A stretch of 32,630 bases of DNA from the NCBI RefSeq assembly GCF_004010195.1, contig NC_057718.1, positions 94,364,617 through 94,397,246 on the forward strand. Reading direction: 5' to 3'. Position 1 is the first letter of the stretch. Each line of letters starts with the position of its first letter. Below are positions 16,201 through 32,630 of this stretch, one piece after another. The stretch is from Chiloscyllium plagiosum (taxonomy: Eukaryota). The position numbers and the translations under genes are program-made. The notes beneath the pieces are model-generated. The model made no database searches, was not told the origin of the DNA, and saw only the letters and a program-made list of their open reading frames with translations.

Positions 16201-18943
16201 TAAGACCATAAGACCATAAGACATAGGAGTGGAAGTAAGGCCATTCGGCCCATCGAGTCCACTCCACCATTCAATCATGGCTGATGGGCATTTCAACTCC
16301 ACTTACCCGCATTCTCCCCGTAGCCCTTACTTCCTCGTGACATCAAGAATTTATCAATCTCTGCCTTGAAGACATTTAGTGTCCCGGCCTCCACTGCACC
16401 CTGCGGCAATGAATTCCACAGGCCCACTACTCTCTGGCTGAAGAAATGTCTCCGCATTTCTATTCTGAATTTACCCCCTCTAATTCTAAGGCTGTGCCCA
16501 CGGGTCCTAGTCTCCTCGCCTCACGGAAACAATTTCCTAGCGCCACCCTTTCCAAGCCATGTATTATCTTGTAAGTTTCTATTAGATCTCCCCTTAATCT
16601 TCTAAACTCCAATGAATACAATCCCAGGATCCTCAGCCGTTCCTCATATGTTAGACCTACCATTCCAGAGATCATCCGTGTGAATCTCCGCTGGACACGC
16701 TCCAGTATCAGTATGTCCTTCCTGAGGTGTGGGGACCAAAATTAGACACAATTATGGGGCCTAACCAGAGCTTTATAAAGTCTCAGTAGCACAACAGTGC
16801 TTTTATATTCCAACCCTCTTGAGATAAATGAAAACATTGCATTCGCTTTCTTAATCACGGACTCAACCTGCATGTTTACCTTTAGAGAATCCTCGACTAT
16901 CACTCACAGATCGCTTTGTACTTTGGCTTTATGAATTTTCTCACCGTTTAGAAAGTAGTCCATGCTTGTATTCTTTTTTCCAAAGTGCAAGACCTCGCAT
17001 TTGCTCACATTGAATTCCATCAGCCATTTCCTGGACCACTCTCCCAAACTGTCTAGATCCTTCTGCAGCCTCCCCACTTCCTCAGTACTACCTGCCTGTC
17101 CACCTAACTTCATACTATCGGCAAACTTCGCTAGAATGCCCCCAGTCCCTTCATCCAGATCATTAATATATAATGTGAACAGCTGCGGCCCCAACACTGA
17201 GCCCTGTGGGACACTGCCTGTCACCGGCTGCCATTCCGAAAAAGAATCTTTTATTCCAACTCTCTGCCTTCTGTCAGACAGCCAATCCTTAATCCATTCC
17301 AGTAGCTCACCTCGAACACCATGGGCCCTCACCTTGCTCAGCAGCCTCTCGTGTGGCACCTTATCAAAGGCCTTTTGGAAGTCTAGATAGACCACATCCA
17401 CTGGGTTTCCCTGGTCTAATCTACTTGTCACCTCTTCAAAGAATTCCAACAGGTTTGTCAGGCACGACCACCCCTTGCACTTTCTCTTTTGTAATGGCAA
17501 CCACACTCAACTCAGCCCTCTGATTCCCTTTAATTGTTGGGATATTACTCATGTCTTCCACTGTGAAAACTGACGCAAAGTACTTGTTAAGTTCTCCTGC
17601 TATTTCCTTATCTCCCATCGCTAGGCTTCCAGCATCAGTTTGAAGTGGCCCAATGTCTACTTTTGCCTGTCGTTTGTTTCTTATGTATTGGAATAAACTT
17701 TTACTATCATTTCTAATATTACTGGCTAGCCTACCTTCATATTTGATTCTCTCCTTCCTTATTTCTCTCTTTGTTATCCTCTGTTTGTTTTTGTAGCCCT
17801 CCCAATCTTCTGATTTCCCAATGCTCTTGGCCACTTTATAGGATTTCTCTTTTTCTTTAATACATTTCCTGACTTCCTTTGTCAGCCATGGCTGTCTAAT
17901 CCCTCCCCGGATAATCTTTCTCTTCTTGGGGATGAACCTCTGTACAGTGTCCTCAATTTTACCCACAAACACCTGCCATTTTTGCTCTACTGTCTTTCCC
18001 GCTAGGCTCTGCTTCCAGTCTATTTTTGTCGGTTCCTCTCTCATGCCCTCATAATTACCTTTATTTAACTGTAACACCATTACAACCGATTTTGCCTTCT
18101 CTCTTTCAAACTGCAGACTGAAGTCTATCATATTATGATCGCTGCTTCCTAAGTGTTCCCTTTCTTTAAGATTTTTTATAAAGTCTGGCTCATTACAAAG
18201 CACTAGGTCCAGAATAGCCTGCTCCCTTGTGGGCTCCATGACAAGCTGTTCCAAAAAGACATCCTGTAAGCATTCCCTTTCTTTGGATCCACTGGCAACA
18301 TTATTTACCCAGTCCACCTGCATATTGAAGTCTCCCATGATCACCGTGACCTTGCCTTTCTGACATGCCTTCTCTATTTCCCGGTACATGTTGCGCCCCT
18401 GGTCCTGACCACTGTTAGGAGGTCTGTAAATAACTCCCATTATGGTTTTTTTGCCTTTGTGGTTCCTCAATTCATTATGGTTTTTTTGCCTTTGTGGTTC
18501 CTCAATTCCACCCACACAGACTCCACATCATTCAGTTGCATAGATTTAATTTTGTTCTTAACTAACAAGGCAACCCTGCCCCCTCTGCCCGCCTCCCTGT
18601 CTTTTCGATAAGTTGAAAATCCTTGGATGTTTAACTGCCAGTCCTGACCCCCCTGTAACCACGTCACTGTGATGCCTACCACATCATAATCATTCACGAT
18701 GATCTGTGCCATTAGTTCATCTGCTTTGTTACGAATGCTACAAGCATTCTGGTAAAGTGCCTTAATGCTAACTTTCTTATCATTAAAAATATTGGAAGTC
18801 ATAAGATGTCCTAAATTATCCTTCCTTTTTGCTGCATTCCCAGTCTGCCTCAAGTTTAAATCCGCCTGCATACATGCTATCCTGCTGCTTATCTTTCCAT
18901 TTAACTCCATACTCCCTGTCGCATTCACTTTCCCTTTCCCCCA
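16201..18943 (-). mobile_element. Decayed CR1 LINE ORF2 (APE endonuclease + RT) with internal deletions
   Basis: APE motifs (LYQNACSIRNK, GITVTWL, YRPP, GDFN, LDLVL, SDH) and RT motifs (YLDFQKAFDKVPH, VPQGSVLGP, FADS for FADD). C-terminal RRLRGDLIETYK and a (TCTTATGG)n tail at 16201. Deletion junctions near 17470 and 16540; 35-bp duplication at 18438-18507. Confidence 0.95.
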
Positions 18944-19109
18944 TGTGTTTTGGTGATGTGCCAACCAGAGCAAAGTGCATGTGGAAGCTTTGAGTGAATG
19001 TGAGGCTTGTGCAAAGTGCAAAGGCGTGCATGACACCTAAGTGTTAGTGGTTGCTGATGGGGATGTGGTGCATTGAGTGGCACGTGAGGCAAGTCTGAGA
19101 TGGCATTTA

Positions 19110-22816: not shown

Positions 22817-23358
22817 TTGTGGTGTGTGCATGTGTGTGTATGTGTGCCGTGTGTGTGCATGCGTATGTGCATGTGTGCTATGTGTGTGTTCCTGTGTGTG
22901 TCTGTATGTGTGCCGTGTGTGTGTGCCGTGTGTGGCTGTGTGTGTCTGTATGTGTGTCATGTGTGTGCGTGTGTGCCATGTGTATGTATGTGTGCCGGGT
23001 GTGTGTGTGCCTTGTGTGTNNNNNNNNNNNNNNNNNNNNNNNNNNNNNNNNNNNNNNNNNNNNNNNNNNNNNNNNNNNNNNNNNNNNNNNNNNNNTTTGT
23101 GTGCGTGCAGTATGTGTATGCCTTGTATGTGTATGGGTGCCGTGCATGTGTGTATGTGTGCCTTGTGTGTGTATGTGTGCCATGTGTATATGTGTGCCGA
23201 GTGTGTGTGTATGTGTGCCGTATGTGTGTATGTATGCCGTGTGTGTGTATGTGTGCCGTGTGTGCATCTGTATATGTGCCATGCGTGTGTGTATGTGTGA
23301 TGTGTGTGTATGTGTACAGTGTGTGTGTGTGTATGTGAGCCGTGTGTGCGTCTGTGTA
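22817..23358. repeat. Compound (TG)n microsatellite with GCC/TA interruptions, containing an assembly gap
   Basis: Continuous TGTG/TATG/TGCC units on both sides of the N run. Confidence 0.95.
23020..23095. other. Assembly gap (76 N)
   Basis: Run of n characters. Confidence 1.
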
Positions 23359-24807: not shown

Positions 24808-25516
24808 GCTGCCTCTCTACTCAGTCTGGCTGGACCAAGGAGGGGAGGGAGGACTGACAAGTGTAAAGTTGGGTTGTGCGGGGAGGGGACAAGGAGAGAG
24901 AGGACAGACAGAAACAGAAAGCGACGAGGGATACAGGTAGACAGAAAGACGGAGCGGGGGCATAAACAGAGAGAAAAGAAAAATGCGGAACTGACAAAAA
25001 AAGGGAGAGGCGGACTGGGCGAAATAGGCTAATTGACAAGAGAAAGCAAAGCCGGGGTGGGGGATTGACAGAAGGAAAGGGGTAGACAGAAAATAAAGAA
25101 GGGAAGGGGAAGCGAAAGGTCAAGTGATAGACAGGAGAGATAGACAGATAGAGGGAGGATAGAGAGACAGGAAAGATAGAGGAGGGAATAGATAGAGAGA
25201 TAGGAGAGATAGATAGAGGGGGGATAGATAGAGAGACATGATAGATAGACAGAGGAGATAGACAAAGAAGGCAGGAGGGACAGATAGAGAGAGGGAGACC
25301 GAGAAGAGACGGCAGGAATAGCCAGATAGAGAGTTCGACAGCGAAGAAACAGGAAGGATAGACAGAAACAGACAGAGAAGAGAGAGGAAGAATTAGACGA
25401 GGAAGAGAGGGCGACGGTCATAAGGAAAAGAGAGGGATAGTCAGAAAGACGGGGATGGACAGAATAGATCGAGGCGAGTTAGAAAAAGAGACCGGGATAG
25501 TCAGAGAAGAGAGGAG
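24717..25516 (+). repeat. Purine-rich low-complexity tract (GA/GATA/GACA-type degenerate microsatellite)
   Basis: About 800 bp strongly A/G-biased on +, most extreme at 25130-25400 (GATAGAGAGA, GACAGA units). Confidence 0.85.
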
Positions 25517-25714
25517 ATACTTGTGAAGTTTTTTTTTCGATAAAGAGCAGCATTTCTTTGGACAGGGATGAACCTGCAGCTACCTGCCGAGCCCGAGCGG
25601 GCCTCCGCCGGGGAACATACTTGTGAAGTTTTTTTCGATAAAGAGCAGCATTTCTTTGGACAGGGATGAACCTGCAGCTACCTGCCGCGCCCGAGCGGGC
25701 CTCCTCCGGGGAAC
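25517..25714 (+). repeat. Tandem duplication (100 bp + 98 bp) spanning the putative splice acceptor and the receptor start codon
   Basis: ATACTTGTGAAG(T)nCGATAAAGAGCAGCATTTCTTTGGACAGGGATGAACCTGCAGCTACC...GGGGAAC at 25517-25616 and 25617-25714. The copies differ by T9 vs T7 and two substitutions. Confidence 0.95.
25568..25669 (+). other. Upstream ORF (33 aa) whose TGA overlaps the receptor ATG (ATGA)
   Basis: Manual translation from the duplicated ATG at 25568 gives [36 protein letters not shown] is at 25667-25669 and the main ATG at 25666-25668. Confidence 0.6.
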
Positions 25715-26310
25715 ACTCGGGGAATGAGTCGGGCGCCTGGGCTCCGACGGGTCGTCCGTCCAACTGGAGCGGCGGAGGTTGGCCGGAGGGGGCGGCGGAC
25801 GAGGACGTGAGGATGGTGGTGATCCAGTTCGTGTACGCGCTGGTGTGCCTGGTGGGGCTGGCGGGCAACGCCATGGTCATCTTTGTCATCCTGAGGTACG
25901 CCAAGATGAAGACGGCGACCAACATCTACCTGCTCAACCTGGCGCTGGCCGACGAGCTCTTCATGCTCAGCGTCCCGTTCGTGGCGGCGGCGGCGGCCCT
26001 CGACCGCTGGCCCTTCGGCCCGCTCATGTGCCGGGCGGTGCTGAGCGTGGACGGACTCAACCAGTTCACCAGCGTCTTCGGCTTGACCGTGCTCAGCGCC
26101 GACCGCTACGTGGCCGTGGTGCACCCCATCAAGGCGGCCCGTTACCGGCGCCCCAGCGTCGCCCGGCTCGTGAACCTGGGCGTCTGGCTGCTCTCGCTGC
26201 TGGTCATCCTGCCCATCGTGGTGTTCGCCGGCACCGCGCCCGTCGGTGGCGGCAGCGATTCCGCCGTCAATCCCGGCGTCAACCTGGCCCCTGGTTCCGC
26301 CGGGGGCTCC
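25580..26310. promoter_or_regulatory. CpG island over the 5' half of the receptor CDS
   Basis: Very high GC and CpG density compared with the CpG-poor, AT-rich remainder of the window. Confidence 0.75.
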
Positions 26311-27441
26311 GCTCTAAAGGTGGGCATCAGTTCCGGTGTAGGCTTCAGTGTAAGTCCCGGCGTAAATATGGGCGCTAATTCCAGTGTAATTCCTGCTGTA
26401 AGTTTGGGCATCAATTCCAGAGTAGGATCCAGTGTAAATCCCAGTGTAAGTGTGAATGGAGGATCCAGTGTAAATCCCAGTGTAAGTGTGGGTGTAGGTT
26501 CCAGTGTAAATCCCAGTGTAAGTGTGGGTGTAGGTTCCAGTGTAATTCCCAGTGTAAGTGTGAATGGAGGATCCAGTGTAAATCCCAGTGTAAGTGTGGG
26601 TGTAGGTTCCAGTGTAAATCCCAGTGTAAGTGTGAATGGAGGATCCAGTGTAAATCCCAGTGTAAGTGTGGGTAAAGGATCCAGTGTAAATCCCAGTGTA
26701 AGTGTAGGTGTAGGTTCCAGTGTAAATCCCAGTGTAAGTGTGAATGGAGGATCCAGTGTAAATCCCAGTGTAAGTGTGAGTGTAGGTTCCAGTGTAAATC
26801 CCAGTGTAAGTGTGGGTAAAAGATCCAGTGTAAATCCCAGTGTAAGTGTGGGTGTAGATCCCAGTGTTGATTCCAACGGCAAGGTGATGTGCGCGTTTCT
26901 CTGGCCGCAGCCAGCCTGGTCAGTGGCATTTGTCGTCTACACCTTCCTGCTGGGCTTCCTGTTGCCTGTGCTGGCCATCAGCCTATGCTACCTGCTCATC
27001 ATTCTGCAGACCCGGGCGGTGGCCCTCAAAGCCGGCTGGCAGCAGCGCCGGCGCTCCGAGCGCAAGCTCACCCGCCTGGTGCTGACAGTGGTCGCTGTCT
27101 TCGTGGTCTGCTGGCTGCCTTTCTACGCCGTGCACCTGGCTGGTGTCTTCCTGGCCCAGCGCAACACCACTGTTAACCACCTCTGTGTGATCCTCAGCTA
27201 CGCCAACAGCTGTGCCAACCCCATCCTCTACGGCTTCCTGTCCGACAACTTCAGGCGCTCCTTTCAGCGGATCCTGTGCTTCCGTTGGCTGGAGAATGAC
27301 ACCGAGGAGCCGGTTGACTATTGCTCCACTGCTCTCAAGAGCAAAGTGGGCAGCCCATTGGAGTTCCAGCCTGCTGAGGACATTGCCTCTGAGTCTGTTT
27401 ATAGAAATGGTACTTGCACATCAAGAACAACCACCTTGTGA
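25666..27441 (+). CDS. SSTR4: Somatostatin receptor type 4-like class A GPCR (SSTR1/4/6 clade), uninterrupted ORF, with ~209-aa repeat insertion in ECL2
   Basis: 591-aa ORF with 7 TM helices and motifs GN(TM1), NLALAD(TM2), C3.25, D3.32, DRY, CWLP, NPILY. SSTR-specific strings: [33 protein letters not shown]-terminal TTTL. Diagnostic segments ([66 protein letters not shown]) match recalled SSTR4 better than SSTR1, although the C-tail (RNGTCTSR) is SSTR1-like. Confidence 0.88.
26425..26856 (+). repeat. Coding minisatellite: 12 x 36 bp ([12 protein letters not shown]), with degenerate units upstream from ~26257
   Basis: Unit GGWTCCAGTGTAAATCCCAGTGTAAGTGTG(AATGGA/GGTGTA/GGTAAA). Unit 1 starts at 26425 and unit 12 at 26821, giving an exact 36-nt period with no indels. 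Confidence 0.97.
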
Positions 27442-32098: not shown

Positions 32099-32630
32099 AA
32101 GAGGAGAGTATGAAACGGACTGGTAAGCTAGAGGAGATACTTGTTAGGAAGGAAGATGTGTTGGGCATTTTGAAAAACCTGAGGATAGACAAGTCCCCCG
32201 GACCTGACGGGATATATCGTCGGATTATGTGGGAAGCAAGAGGAGAGTATGAAACGGACTGGTAAGCTAGAGGAGATACTTGTTAGGAAGGAAGATGTGT
32301 TGGGCATTTTGAAAAACCTGAGGATAGACAAGTCCCCCGGACCTGACGGGATATATCGTCGGATTATGTGGGAAGCAAGAGAAGAAATTGCAGAGCCGTT
32401 GGCAATGATCTTTTTGTCTTCACTGTCAACGGGGGTGGTACCAGGGGACTGGAGAGTGGCGAATGTTGTGCCCCTGTTCAAAAAAGGGAATAGGGATAAC
32501 CCTGGGAATTACAGGCCAGTTAGTCTTACTTCGGTGGCAGGCAAAGTAATGGAAAGGGTACTGAGGGATAGGATTTATGAGTATCTGGAAAGAAACTGCT
32601 TGATTAGGGACAGCCAGCACAGATTTGTGA
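32099..32630 (+). mobile_element. CR1 LINE RT N-terminal fragment (runs off window) with 139-bp tandem duplication
   Basis: DKSPGPDGIY, VPGDWRVANVVPLFKKG.R..PGNYRPVSLTS motifs; 32099-32237 is repeated at 32238-32376. Confidence 0.9.

Follow-up and report, generated by a model that had tools for sequence, protein, structure and literature searches.

We describe a somatostatin receptor gene of the bamboo shark Chiloscyllium plagiosum in which a tandem-repeat array of 627 in-frame nucleotides (nt) stands between the end of transmembrane helix (TM) 4 and the β-hairpin of the second extracellular loop (ECL2). The gene lies in a window, meaning the whole stretch of DNA that was analysed, of 32,630 nt (contig NC_057718.1, positions 94,364,617 to 94,397,246, forward strand; the coordinates below count from its first letter). 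By phylogeny the receptor is an orthologue of SSTR4, its core is closely conserved, and the array, a minisatellite, is shared with other carpet sharks. We give about an even chance to the reading that the array is translated, tolerated and weakly constrained, and that it lengthens ECL2 ahead of the hairpin.

Anatomy of the receptor and of the array

The open reading frame (ORF) of 591 amino acids (aa) passes the Pfam gathering score for 7tm_1 (218.5 bits vs. 30.5, E 1.4e-64) in two stretches that flank the insert, and its top PDB matches with phmmer are SSTR1 (E 3.1e-145) and SSTR4 (E 1.5e-133). Residues 8-191 correspond to residues 15-199 of human SSTR1 and residues 401-591 to residues 200-391. 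Because the two flanks align contiguously to the human protein, the 209-residue block is a clean insertion that displaced no receptor residue, and its removal leaves 382 aa, as an earlier note made from the sequence had calculated. The motifs DRY, CWxP and NPxxY and the disulfide pair Cys3.25-CysECL2 are hallmarks of the G-protein-coupled receptors (GPCRs) of class A. All are present in the translation (D146-R147-Y148, C482-W483-L-P485, N518-P519-I-L-Y522, C122 and C409), which bears out the earlier statement that they are intact, and the motif columns as well as both cysteines are invariant across 92 aligned sequences.

The insert (26242-26868) is made up of 17 units, each 36 nt long, and a remainder of 15 nt; all share one register, frame 0 has no stop codon, and the insert enters ECL2 8-9 residues before the conserved cysteine; the unit length is a multiple of three, so that the array is a coding minisatellite. 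Tandem Repeats Finder (TRF) reports a period of 36 nt with 12.4 copies, 89% matches and no indels (score 701) at 26422-26867 and a degenerate 36-nt stretch at 26346-26424. The coordinates, the twelve regular 12-aa units, the location in ECL2 and the minisatellite nature that had been read from the letters are thereby borne out. The regular units match their own consensus at 32-35 of 36 bases and encode (V/G/K)(G/R)SSV(N/I)PSVSV(N/G/S); each is composed of three 12-nt sub-units, TCCAGTGTAAAT, CCCAGTGTAAGT (10/12 alike) and GTGGGTGTAGGA. All four full-length species share the ending ...G(V/I)DPS of the array. In composition the insert is 30% Ser, 25% Val, 17% Gly, 10% Asn and 8% Pro, with 0% Thr. 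It holds 11 NP[ST] triplets, which are blocked by proline as had been predicted, and a single true sequon, NSS. The mucin-like brush that was suggested earlier would have this composition (Ser 30%, Thr 0%, Pro 8%) as its basis.

Table 1. Features of the receptor gene and its array in the window
Feature	Position	Strand	Remarks
Intronless complete coding sequence (CDS) of the SSTR4-orthologous somatostatin receptor	25666..27441	+	591 codons plus stop; ORF list
N-terminus to end of TM4, residues 1-192 (...VVFAGTAP)	25666..26241	+	GC content at third codon positions (GC3) 0.94; aligns to human SSTR1 15-199
Cys122 (Cys3.25) codon, TM3 partner of the ECL2 disulfide	26029..26031	+	Invariant column among 92 sequences; role from the available text of PMC9343605
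Five degenerate 36-nt units	26242..26421	+	In register; 9-19/36 identical to the regular-unit consensus; fast-evolving between species
Twelve regular 36-nt units, consensus GTAGGATCCAGTGTAAATCCCAGTGTAAGTGTGGGT	26422..26853	+	TRF and unit table; GC3 0.17-0.25
Partial last unit (VDPSV), the link between the array and the native ECL2 hairpin	26854..26868	+	
Native ECL2 hairpin (DSNGKVMC), TM5-TM7, helix 8, C-tail	26869..27441	+	Aligns to human SSTR1 200-391
Cys409 codon of ECL2	26890-26892	+	C409 invariant among 92 sequences
Antisense ORF, 172 aa from ATG	26411..26929	-	Repeat by-product, not a gene; all reverse frames open over the regular units

Around the start of the gene, a 98-nt tandem duplication spans the start codon (25517..25715, + strand; TRF: period 98, 2.0 copies, 96% matches). 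An upstream ORF of 33 codons (25568-25669, MNLQLPAEPERASAGEH...) begins in the upstream copy of this duplication, and its TGA overlaps the main ATG (ATGA); its first 17 residues are those of the N-terminus of the C. punctatum protein. The duplication with its upstream ORF might damp translation, or might be a duplication made in the assembly. The approximately 600 nt directly 5' of the gene (24900-25500) are strongly purine-rich on the + strand, with a GC skew of 0.4-0.76 and an AT skew of 0.3-0.7, and contain an AG-rich repeat of 36-nt period at 25129-25298.

Identity and conservation of the receptor core

We built an unrooted maximum-likelihood tree of 44 proteins of the SSTR1/4/6 type. Chondrichthyan sequences annotated by NCBI as “SSTR1-like” make up one clade in it, apart from both true SSTR1 and the SSTR6-like clade. 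A rooted tree of 32 rows, in which three SSTR2/3/5-type paralogues translated from the C. plagiosum genome served as the root and the masked row L017 was omitted, joins this clade with SSTR4 of bony vertebrates to the exclusion of SSTR1 and SSTR6-like proteins, with a support of 95 in the Shimodaira-Hasegawa-like approximate likelihood ratio test (SH-aLRT). On the evidence of the rooted tree, with which the unrooted one agrees, the gene is an SSTR4 orthologue, which is the identity first proposed for it. None of its four nearest paralogues in the same genome (L011, L014-L016) is split at the site of the array.

Relative to C. plagiosum, the core is identical at 377/383 positions in C. punctatum, 375/383 in Hemiscyllium ocellatum and 354/383 in Stegostoma tigrinum (92-98%). 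The stem branch of the orectolobiform SSTR4 stands out by its length (0.6-0.71 changes per column, vs. 0.03-0.1 for other sharks). Among the 88 other sequences, 168 columns show conservation of at least 90%, and 10 of these are changed in each of the four orectolobiform rows; at the same columns the other chondrichthyan rows mostly show 0-2 differences, three rows showing 6-9. Conservative exchanges (I>V, K>R, M>L, S>A) make up the majority of the stem changes. The slow evolution of the core after this burst suggests that purifying selection resumed when the array was already part of the receptor.

Two of the ten changed positions are equivalent to ligand-contact residues. In human SSTR4, N199 of ECL2 and Q279 (6.55) contact ligands, according to the available text of PMC9343605. 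In orectolobiforms the asparagine that follows the ECL2 cysteine (Cys+1) is replaced by Ala, Val or Met (A410 in C. plagiosum, 26893-26895), and Q6.55 is replaced by His (H490, 27133-27135). The long stem branch on which both replacements arose is also that of the array. The ligand-contact residues D129 (D3.32), F486 (F6.51) and Y487 (Y6.52) are kept.

Occurrence among sharks and age

The insertion is neither recent nor confined to a single species, and comparison of the orthologues shows it to be older than had been assumed. Homologous arrays occupy one site in C. plagiosum (protein 591 aa, insert 208 aa), C. punctatum (635 aa, 252 aa), H. ocellatum (639 aa, 256 aa) and the zebra shark S. tigrinum (599 aa, 216 aa). 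The core in this comparison is exactly 383 aa in each of them, and the number of regular units differs between species (12, 15, 16).

The whale shark also carries at least the start of the array. Its NCBI model XP_048457422.1 (P0008, R. typus, 333 aa) skips the array and is without the N-terminal 49 residues, and an older whale-shark fragment, P0121 (220 aa), continues past ...FAGTA into PAGGGVDFSVNPGVNMDINPGVVSSVNPS, the start of the array. Between the two, 143 of 147 aligned residues match and the four mismatches all fall after ...FAGTA; since the fragment matches the model and then enters the array, the NCBI model must have jumped it. An insertion dated after the split of the whale shark, as P0008 would have it, was therefore rejected on the strength of P0121 and P0128. 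The older C. punctatum model GCC25813.1 (P0007, 377 aa) likewise bridges the array as an intron. Because two shark models hide the array as an “intron”, the shark SSTR4 entries in receptor catalogues are inconsistent. A search for short protein fragments, which returned seven proteins, yielded no insert-less bamboo-shark form; the whale-shark fragment came from this search.

As judged from these protein models, the array is common to at least three carpet-shark families, Hemiscylliidae, Stegostomatidae and Rhincodontidae. The available text of PMC8529718 places the split of the orectolobiform families before the Cretaceous-Palaeogene boundary; an array common to families that split before it is at least about 66 million years (Myr) old. 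In the annotated proteins of 11 non-orectolobiform chondrichthyans the loop is of normal short length and the array was not seen, an absence that is provisional because gene models can hide an array.

A foreign source of the array was considered and rejected, as a search of the shark's own genome gave no close copy and the best other matches were GT-rich minisatellites, 64-68% identical, on four other contigs. The minisatellite L003 (G000:C30:46755667-46759062) has, at 1165-2107, a base unit of 12 nt, AGTTACACTGGG, whose reverse complement CCCAGTGTAACT resembles the sub-unit of the array, with higher-order periods of 36, 72 and 132 nt, and L004, L006 and L007 are other long minisatellites of the same GT-rich class. 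The likeness of L003 is one of a shared motif class and not of source.

How the array evolves

The regular units vary at eight sites, two synonymous and six non-synonymous, and the 12 nt for the x-x-G linker account for seven of the eight. The array evolves in concert within each lineage: the zebra-shark unit, G(A/V)GSS(V/I)NPSVNM, differs from the bamboo-shark unit. The H. ocellatum array includes one 10-aa unit and a 4-aa gap. In the 5' part, which is not homogenised, C. plagiosum and C. punctatum differ at approximately 9 of 60 residues and by an 8-aa indel (counted from the alignment), and the cores of the two species differ at 6 of 383. These comparisons suggest that constraint on the sequence of the insert is weak, which argues against the finely tuned gate for peptide ligands that had been imagined.

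GC3 grades from 0.75 down to 0.33 through the five 5' units. From this we infer that the 5' units are old and that the regular units are a younger, AT-rich variant that spread. As the lengths of the unit and of its sub-units are multiples of three, slippage or unequal exchange changes the copy number and leaves the frame intact.

Splice signals and gene annotations

Candidate splice sites were scored with a crude splice matrix. With this matrix no acceptor scoring ≥0 was found between 26242 and 26883, and the nearest decent acceptor, at 26910, would cost the receptor its invariant cysteine of ECL2. If the old C. punctatum model were right, an intron of 642 nt (26242-26883) would have the sites CCC/GTCGGT and ggcaAG/G (slash, splice point), which score -4.5 and -3.8.

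The NCBI models of C. plagiosum, C. punctatum, H. ocellatum and S. tigrinum retain the array as CDS, and no insert-less isoform is present in these four annotations. The C. plagiosum isoforms X2-X4 correspond to deletions of 72, 108 and 144 nt, i.e. of 2, 3 and 4 units, and each deletion allows a GT-AG placement at very weak sites (TAG/GTTCCA ... GTGTAG/). They are more likely gapped alignments of reads from shorter alleles than real introns; if so, repeat-bearing transcripts would exist and the copy number may vary within C. plagiosum.

SSTR genes have no introns in their coding regions, and vertebrates rarely gain new ones. The delta-opioid receptor gene of C. plagiosum has a canonical intron (AAAG/GTAAGC) in ECL2, a few residues from the homologous site; its exon L023 (G000:C27:19226700-19227400), which encodes TM2-TM4 at 194-538, ends in ...MAVTKPGDK/GTAAGC. 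Three more partial matches in the shark's own genome stop at query residues 188-191.

Predicted fold of the array

In the AlphaFold2 model of the full-length protein (92-row alignment) the predicted local distance difference test (pLDDT) is 79-88 at residues ~250-390, with a strict 12-residue pattern EE--EEEE----; it is below 50 in the first ~50 residues of the insert and 65-75 in the 7TM core. For the insert alone the best model reaches a pLDDT of 77-83, and the other four have means of 54-58. A Foldseek search of the PDB gave 0 of 211 matches at E ≤ 0.001. With VIA-align the top matches are two-sheet β-helices, namely proteins of the SufB/SufD type (Z 17.4-18.1, root-mean-square deviation (r.m.s.d.) 4.5-5.0 Å) and the curli protein CsgA (Z 15.6). 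Against the left-handed β-helix enzymes NeuO and OatWY the model, with its 12-residue strand pattern, gives a Z of about 10 at an r.m.s.d. of about 10 Å.

On the sequence level, phmmer of the insert against the PDB finds perosamine N-acetyltransferase (PerB, E 5.3e-5), GlmU (E 0.0089) and, more weakly, PglD and LpxA. The hexapeptide consensus is [LIV]-[GAEDN]-x-x-[STAV]-x, and the 12-aa unit is readable as two hexapeptides, [V-N-P-S-V-S][V-x-x-G-S-S]. Pfam reports no family for the insert alone at E ≤ 10. Relatives of the receptor give sub-threshold matches to Hexapep, LbH_EIF2B and GMPPB_C, and P0002 (7.9 bits) and P0003 (14.3 bits) miss the cut-off of 27 bits for Hexapep (PF00132). A left-handed β-helix of this kind is three-sided, with 18 residues per turn; as the model superposes poorly on such helices, the sequence lead and the predicted fold disagree. 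The ESM Atlas gave no usable match for residues 253-400.

In a library of 1.84 billion proteins, the closest small proteins are bacterial secreted ones with 12-aa GSGASVKPDYQV repeats, P0133 (E 2.3e-29) and P0151 (E 4.9e-14), and P0133 passes Pfam Hexapep at 36.1 bits vs. 27. In both, an N-terminal domain, assigned by Pfam to DUF5666 in P0151, precedes ~14-15 tandem units of 12 aa, GSGASVKPDYQV or GTGASVRPDHVV.

How far can such a model be trusted? According to the available text of Pratt et al., AlphaFold2 turned 32 of 78 random perfect repeats into β-solenoids, in many cases with confidence, and AlphaFold2 solenoid predictions for mucins are discussed in the same work (PMC11795689). Because AlphaFold2 over-predicts the β-solenoid for perfect repeats, the solenoid is here a lead and not a finding. 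The β-solenoid of the earlier note has thus gained a model that supports it, in a class of sequence that is a known weak case of the method.

Competing readings of the array

In the reading that we favour, the minisatellite would have arisen in the ECL2-coding part of the intronless SSTR4 on the carpet-shark stem. The array would most likely be retained in the mRNA and translated, so that the receptor would bear a Ser/Val/Gly/Asn/Pro-rich appendage of 208-256 residues between TM4 and the ECL2 β-hairpin. Slippage and unequal exchange would alter the copy number without loss of frame, selection on the downstream TM5-TM7 would purge frameshift and stop alleles, and the array would change in concert in each lineage with little constraint on its own sequence. 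The core, under strong purifying selection, would presumably still signal as a somatostatin receptor. The appendage may be tolerated in a way comparable to the mostly dispensable ECL2 of C3aR, and may at most modulate ligand access. The contiguous flanks, the homologous arrays at one site, the whale-shark junction, the array-retaining annotations, the poor acceptors, the unsplit paralogues, the concerted and weakly constrained change of the units and the conserved core all speak for this reading.

Several observations weigh against it. Five of the six frames are open across the regular units, which makes an open frame weak evidence: over the 627 nt, stops number 0, 43 and 3 in the forward frames and 1, 0 and 6 in the reverse frames, and stop-to-stop ORFs of 264, 201 and 188 aa span the regular units in all three reverse frames, so that the caution voiced earlier about several stop-free frames holds. 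Single-base changes that create a stop amount to 16 of 1881 in the insert vs. 100 of 3438 in the core. The third positions of the regular units are non-coding-like (GC3 0.17-0.25 vs. 0.86 in the core), with GTA serving for 31 of 42 Val (core 0 of 42) and AGT for 37 of 49 Ser (core 0 of 26). Fourteen GTAAGT hexamers, all in phase 0, lie inside the insert, and two gene models (GCC25813.1 and XP_048457422.1) skip the array. Finally, a length of 208-256 aa that was kept in every lineage for >66 Myr and never collapsed fits less well with pure tolerance than with some benefit.

Alternatively, the translated array might form a rigid β-solenoid rod from hexapeptide-like half-units, a selected ectodomain that changes ligand access and that co-evolved with contact residues. 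We consider this unlikely, and more doubtful again the fuller version in which a rod born from a minisatellite was kept for >66 Myr, alters ligand access or selectivity of SSTR4 and co-evolved with Cys+1 and Q6.55H. At residues ~250-390 the insert exceeds the 7TM core in pLDDT, its model resembles the two-sheet β-helices SufB/SufD and CsgA, and its sequence leads to left-handed β-helix enzymes and to bacterial 12-aa repeats, of which P0133 stands above the Hexapep cut-off. Moreover, Met replaces Val at the second “i” position in the zebra shark, which is still hydrophobic; array length is held within 208-256 aa in the four species; the 60-residue low-confidence 5' part could serve as a return linker for a rod in a loop; and every orectolobiform row has changes at the sites N410 (Cys+1) and Q490 (6.55). 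Set against these are the low means of four of the five insert-only models, the empty Foldseek result at the threshold given above, the poor likeness to the left-handed β-helix and the failure of the insert to reach the Pfam Hexapep threshold. Three zebra-shark units place Arg at a presumed core position, H. ocellatum has its 10-aa unit and 4-aa gap, and six of the eight variable sites of the regular units are non-synonymous. In a further reading the array would be wholly or mostly excised as a gained intron or “exitron”, and the working receptor would have a normal short ECL2. We regard this too as improbable. The skipping models P0007 and P0008, the codon usage and GC3 of the regular units, the phase-0 hexamers together with the in-frame GT-AG pair at 26242..26883 (642 nt), the GT-AG placements of X2-X4 and the ECL2 intron of the delta-opioid receptor gene, a member of the sister family, are what one would expect of it. 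The insert contains no acceptor-like site by our matrix, though, and the acceptor at 26910 deletes the invariant cysteine; the sites for an exact skip are very poor, and those of X2-X4 are very weak and remove whole units. The four NCBI annotations are without an insert-less isoform, in four species neither the array as a whole nor its non-homogenised 5' part, which has several indels, contains a stop or leaves the frame, and a new intron would be at odds with the intronless SSTR genes and the rarity of intron gain in vertebrates.

A decaying or functionless gene copy, with the array as a mark of relaxed constraint, is very improbable. It would agree with the long stem branch, the 10 of 168 changed conserved columns and the upstream ORF before the start codon in C. 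plagiosum. After the stem, however, the core evolved slowly (92-98% over >66 Myr at identical length), neither stops nor frameshifts occur in the four species, the stem changes are mostly conservative, and D3.32, F6.51, Y6.52, DRY, CWxP, NPxxY and both cysteines are intact. An assembly artefact has next to no chance of being the explanation: tandem repeats mis-assemble easily and the copy number of any one assembly may be wrong, but arrays at the same site are found on contigs of 99-117 Mb in three other species, and the 5' junction is present in an older assembly of the whale shark. The concern about an artefact that had been raised earlier is answered by these other assemblies.

Comparison with known systems

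Mucin repeats of the MUC1 type, encoded by a variable number tandem repeat (VNTR), are an extracellular Ser-rich tandem repeat that derives from a minisatellite. The shark array differs from mucin VNTRs in having no Thr, 25% Val and 8% Pro. A closer parallel among receptors is the 48-bp VNTR in exon 3 of DRD4, likewise an in-frame minisatellite in a loop of a class A GPCR with a unit that is a multiple of three and with variable copies, which in the sharks differ between species, the DRD4 case being described in the available text of PMC3164202. The DRD4 repeat encodes intracellular loop 3, whereas the shark array, with 12-16 regular 12-aa units, lies in ECL2 by the ligand entrance and, unlike the DRD4 VNTR, has been fixed across several shark families for >66 Myr.

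In the length of its ECL2, the shark receptor resembles C3aR. The accessible part of bioRxiv 10.1101/2023.02.09.527835 describes C3aR as a class A peptide GPCR with an ECL2 of >150 residues that is mostly flexible, is not resolved by cryo-electron microscopy and is dispensable, while the hairpin is kept. The C3aR loop is not a tandem repeat, and its long portion, Lys175 to Pro330 at TM5, follows the hairpin (Tyr174). The array of the sharks, in contrast, precedes the hairpin and is a near-perfect repeat.

The resemblance to hexapeptide left-handed β-helix proteins (PF00132; PerB, GlmU, LpxA, PglD) consists in a unit that reads as two hexapeptides and in the phmmer match to PerB at E 5.3e-5. 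The insert remains below the Pfam threshold, its model superposes poorly, and its vertebrate minisatellite origin excludes common descent with these proteins. The repeats of P0133 and P0151 have the same period and the pattern G-x-G-x-S-V-x-P-x-h-x-V, and are 44-47% identical to the array over about 120-130 residues. These bacterial proteins are unrelated to the shark receptor, and the likeness is convergent.

Human SSTR4 and SSTR1 (PDB-codes: 7xms, 9ik8) share with the shark receptor the 7TM core, the ECL2 hairpin with its Cys3.25-CysECL2 disulfide and the C-tail. The shark protein departs from them by the 209-aa insertion, by N(Cys+1) to A/V/M and by Q6.55 to H. The ECL2 of somatostatin receptors, a short hairpin, touches the peptide and contributes to subtype selectivity (both statements from the available text of PMC9343605). 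We found no description of the array in the papers that our searches returned on Chiloscyllium somatostatin receptors, on SSTR6 of cartilaginous fishes and on minisatellites in GPCR ECL2.

The array is fixed at the base of the ECL2 hairpin throughout a group of sharks, while the receptor core is under strong purifying selection. This makes it a natural experiment on the amount of foreign sequence that a class A peptide receptor can take at its ligand entrance, and a case of the persistence and concerted evolution of coding minisatellites through tens of Myr. It also bears on whether repeat DNA can yield a folded domain; the solenoid, if true, would amount to the birth of a structured domain inside a GPCR.

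Other features of the window

On the - strand at 16904-19036, three overlapping ORFs of 200, 363 and 189 aa look by eye like an endonuclease/reverse transcriptase of the long interspersed nuclear element (LINE) type (...YLDFQKAFDKVPH...). The stretch 22818-23357 is occupied by compound micro- and minisatellites, rich in TG and of periods 2, 17, 19, 33 and 44, around a run of N. A 139-nt tandem duplication (2.1 copies, 99% matches) is located at 32099-32385.

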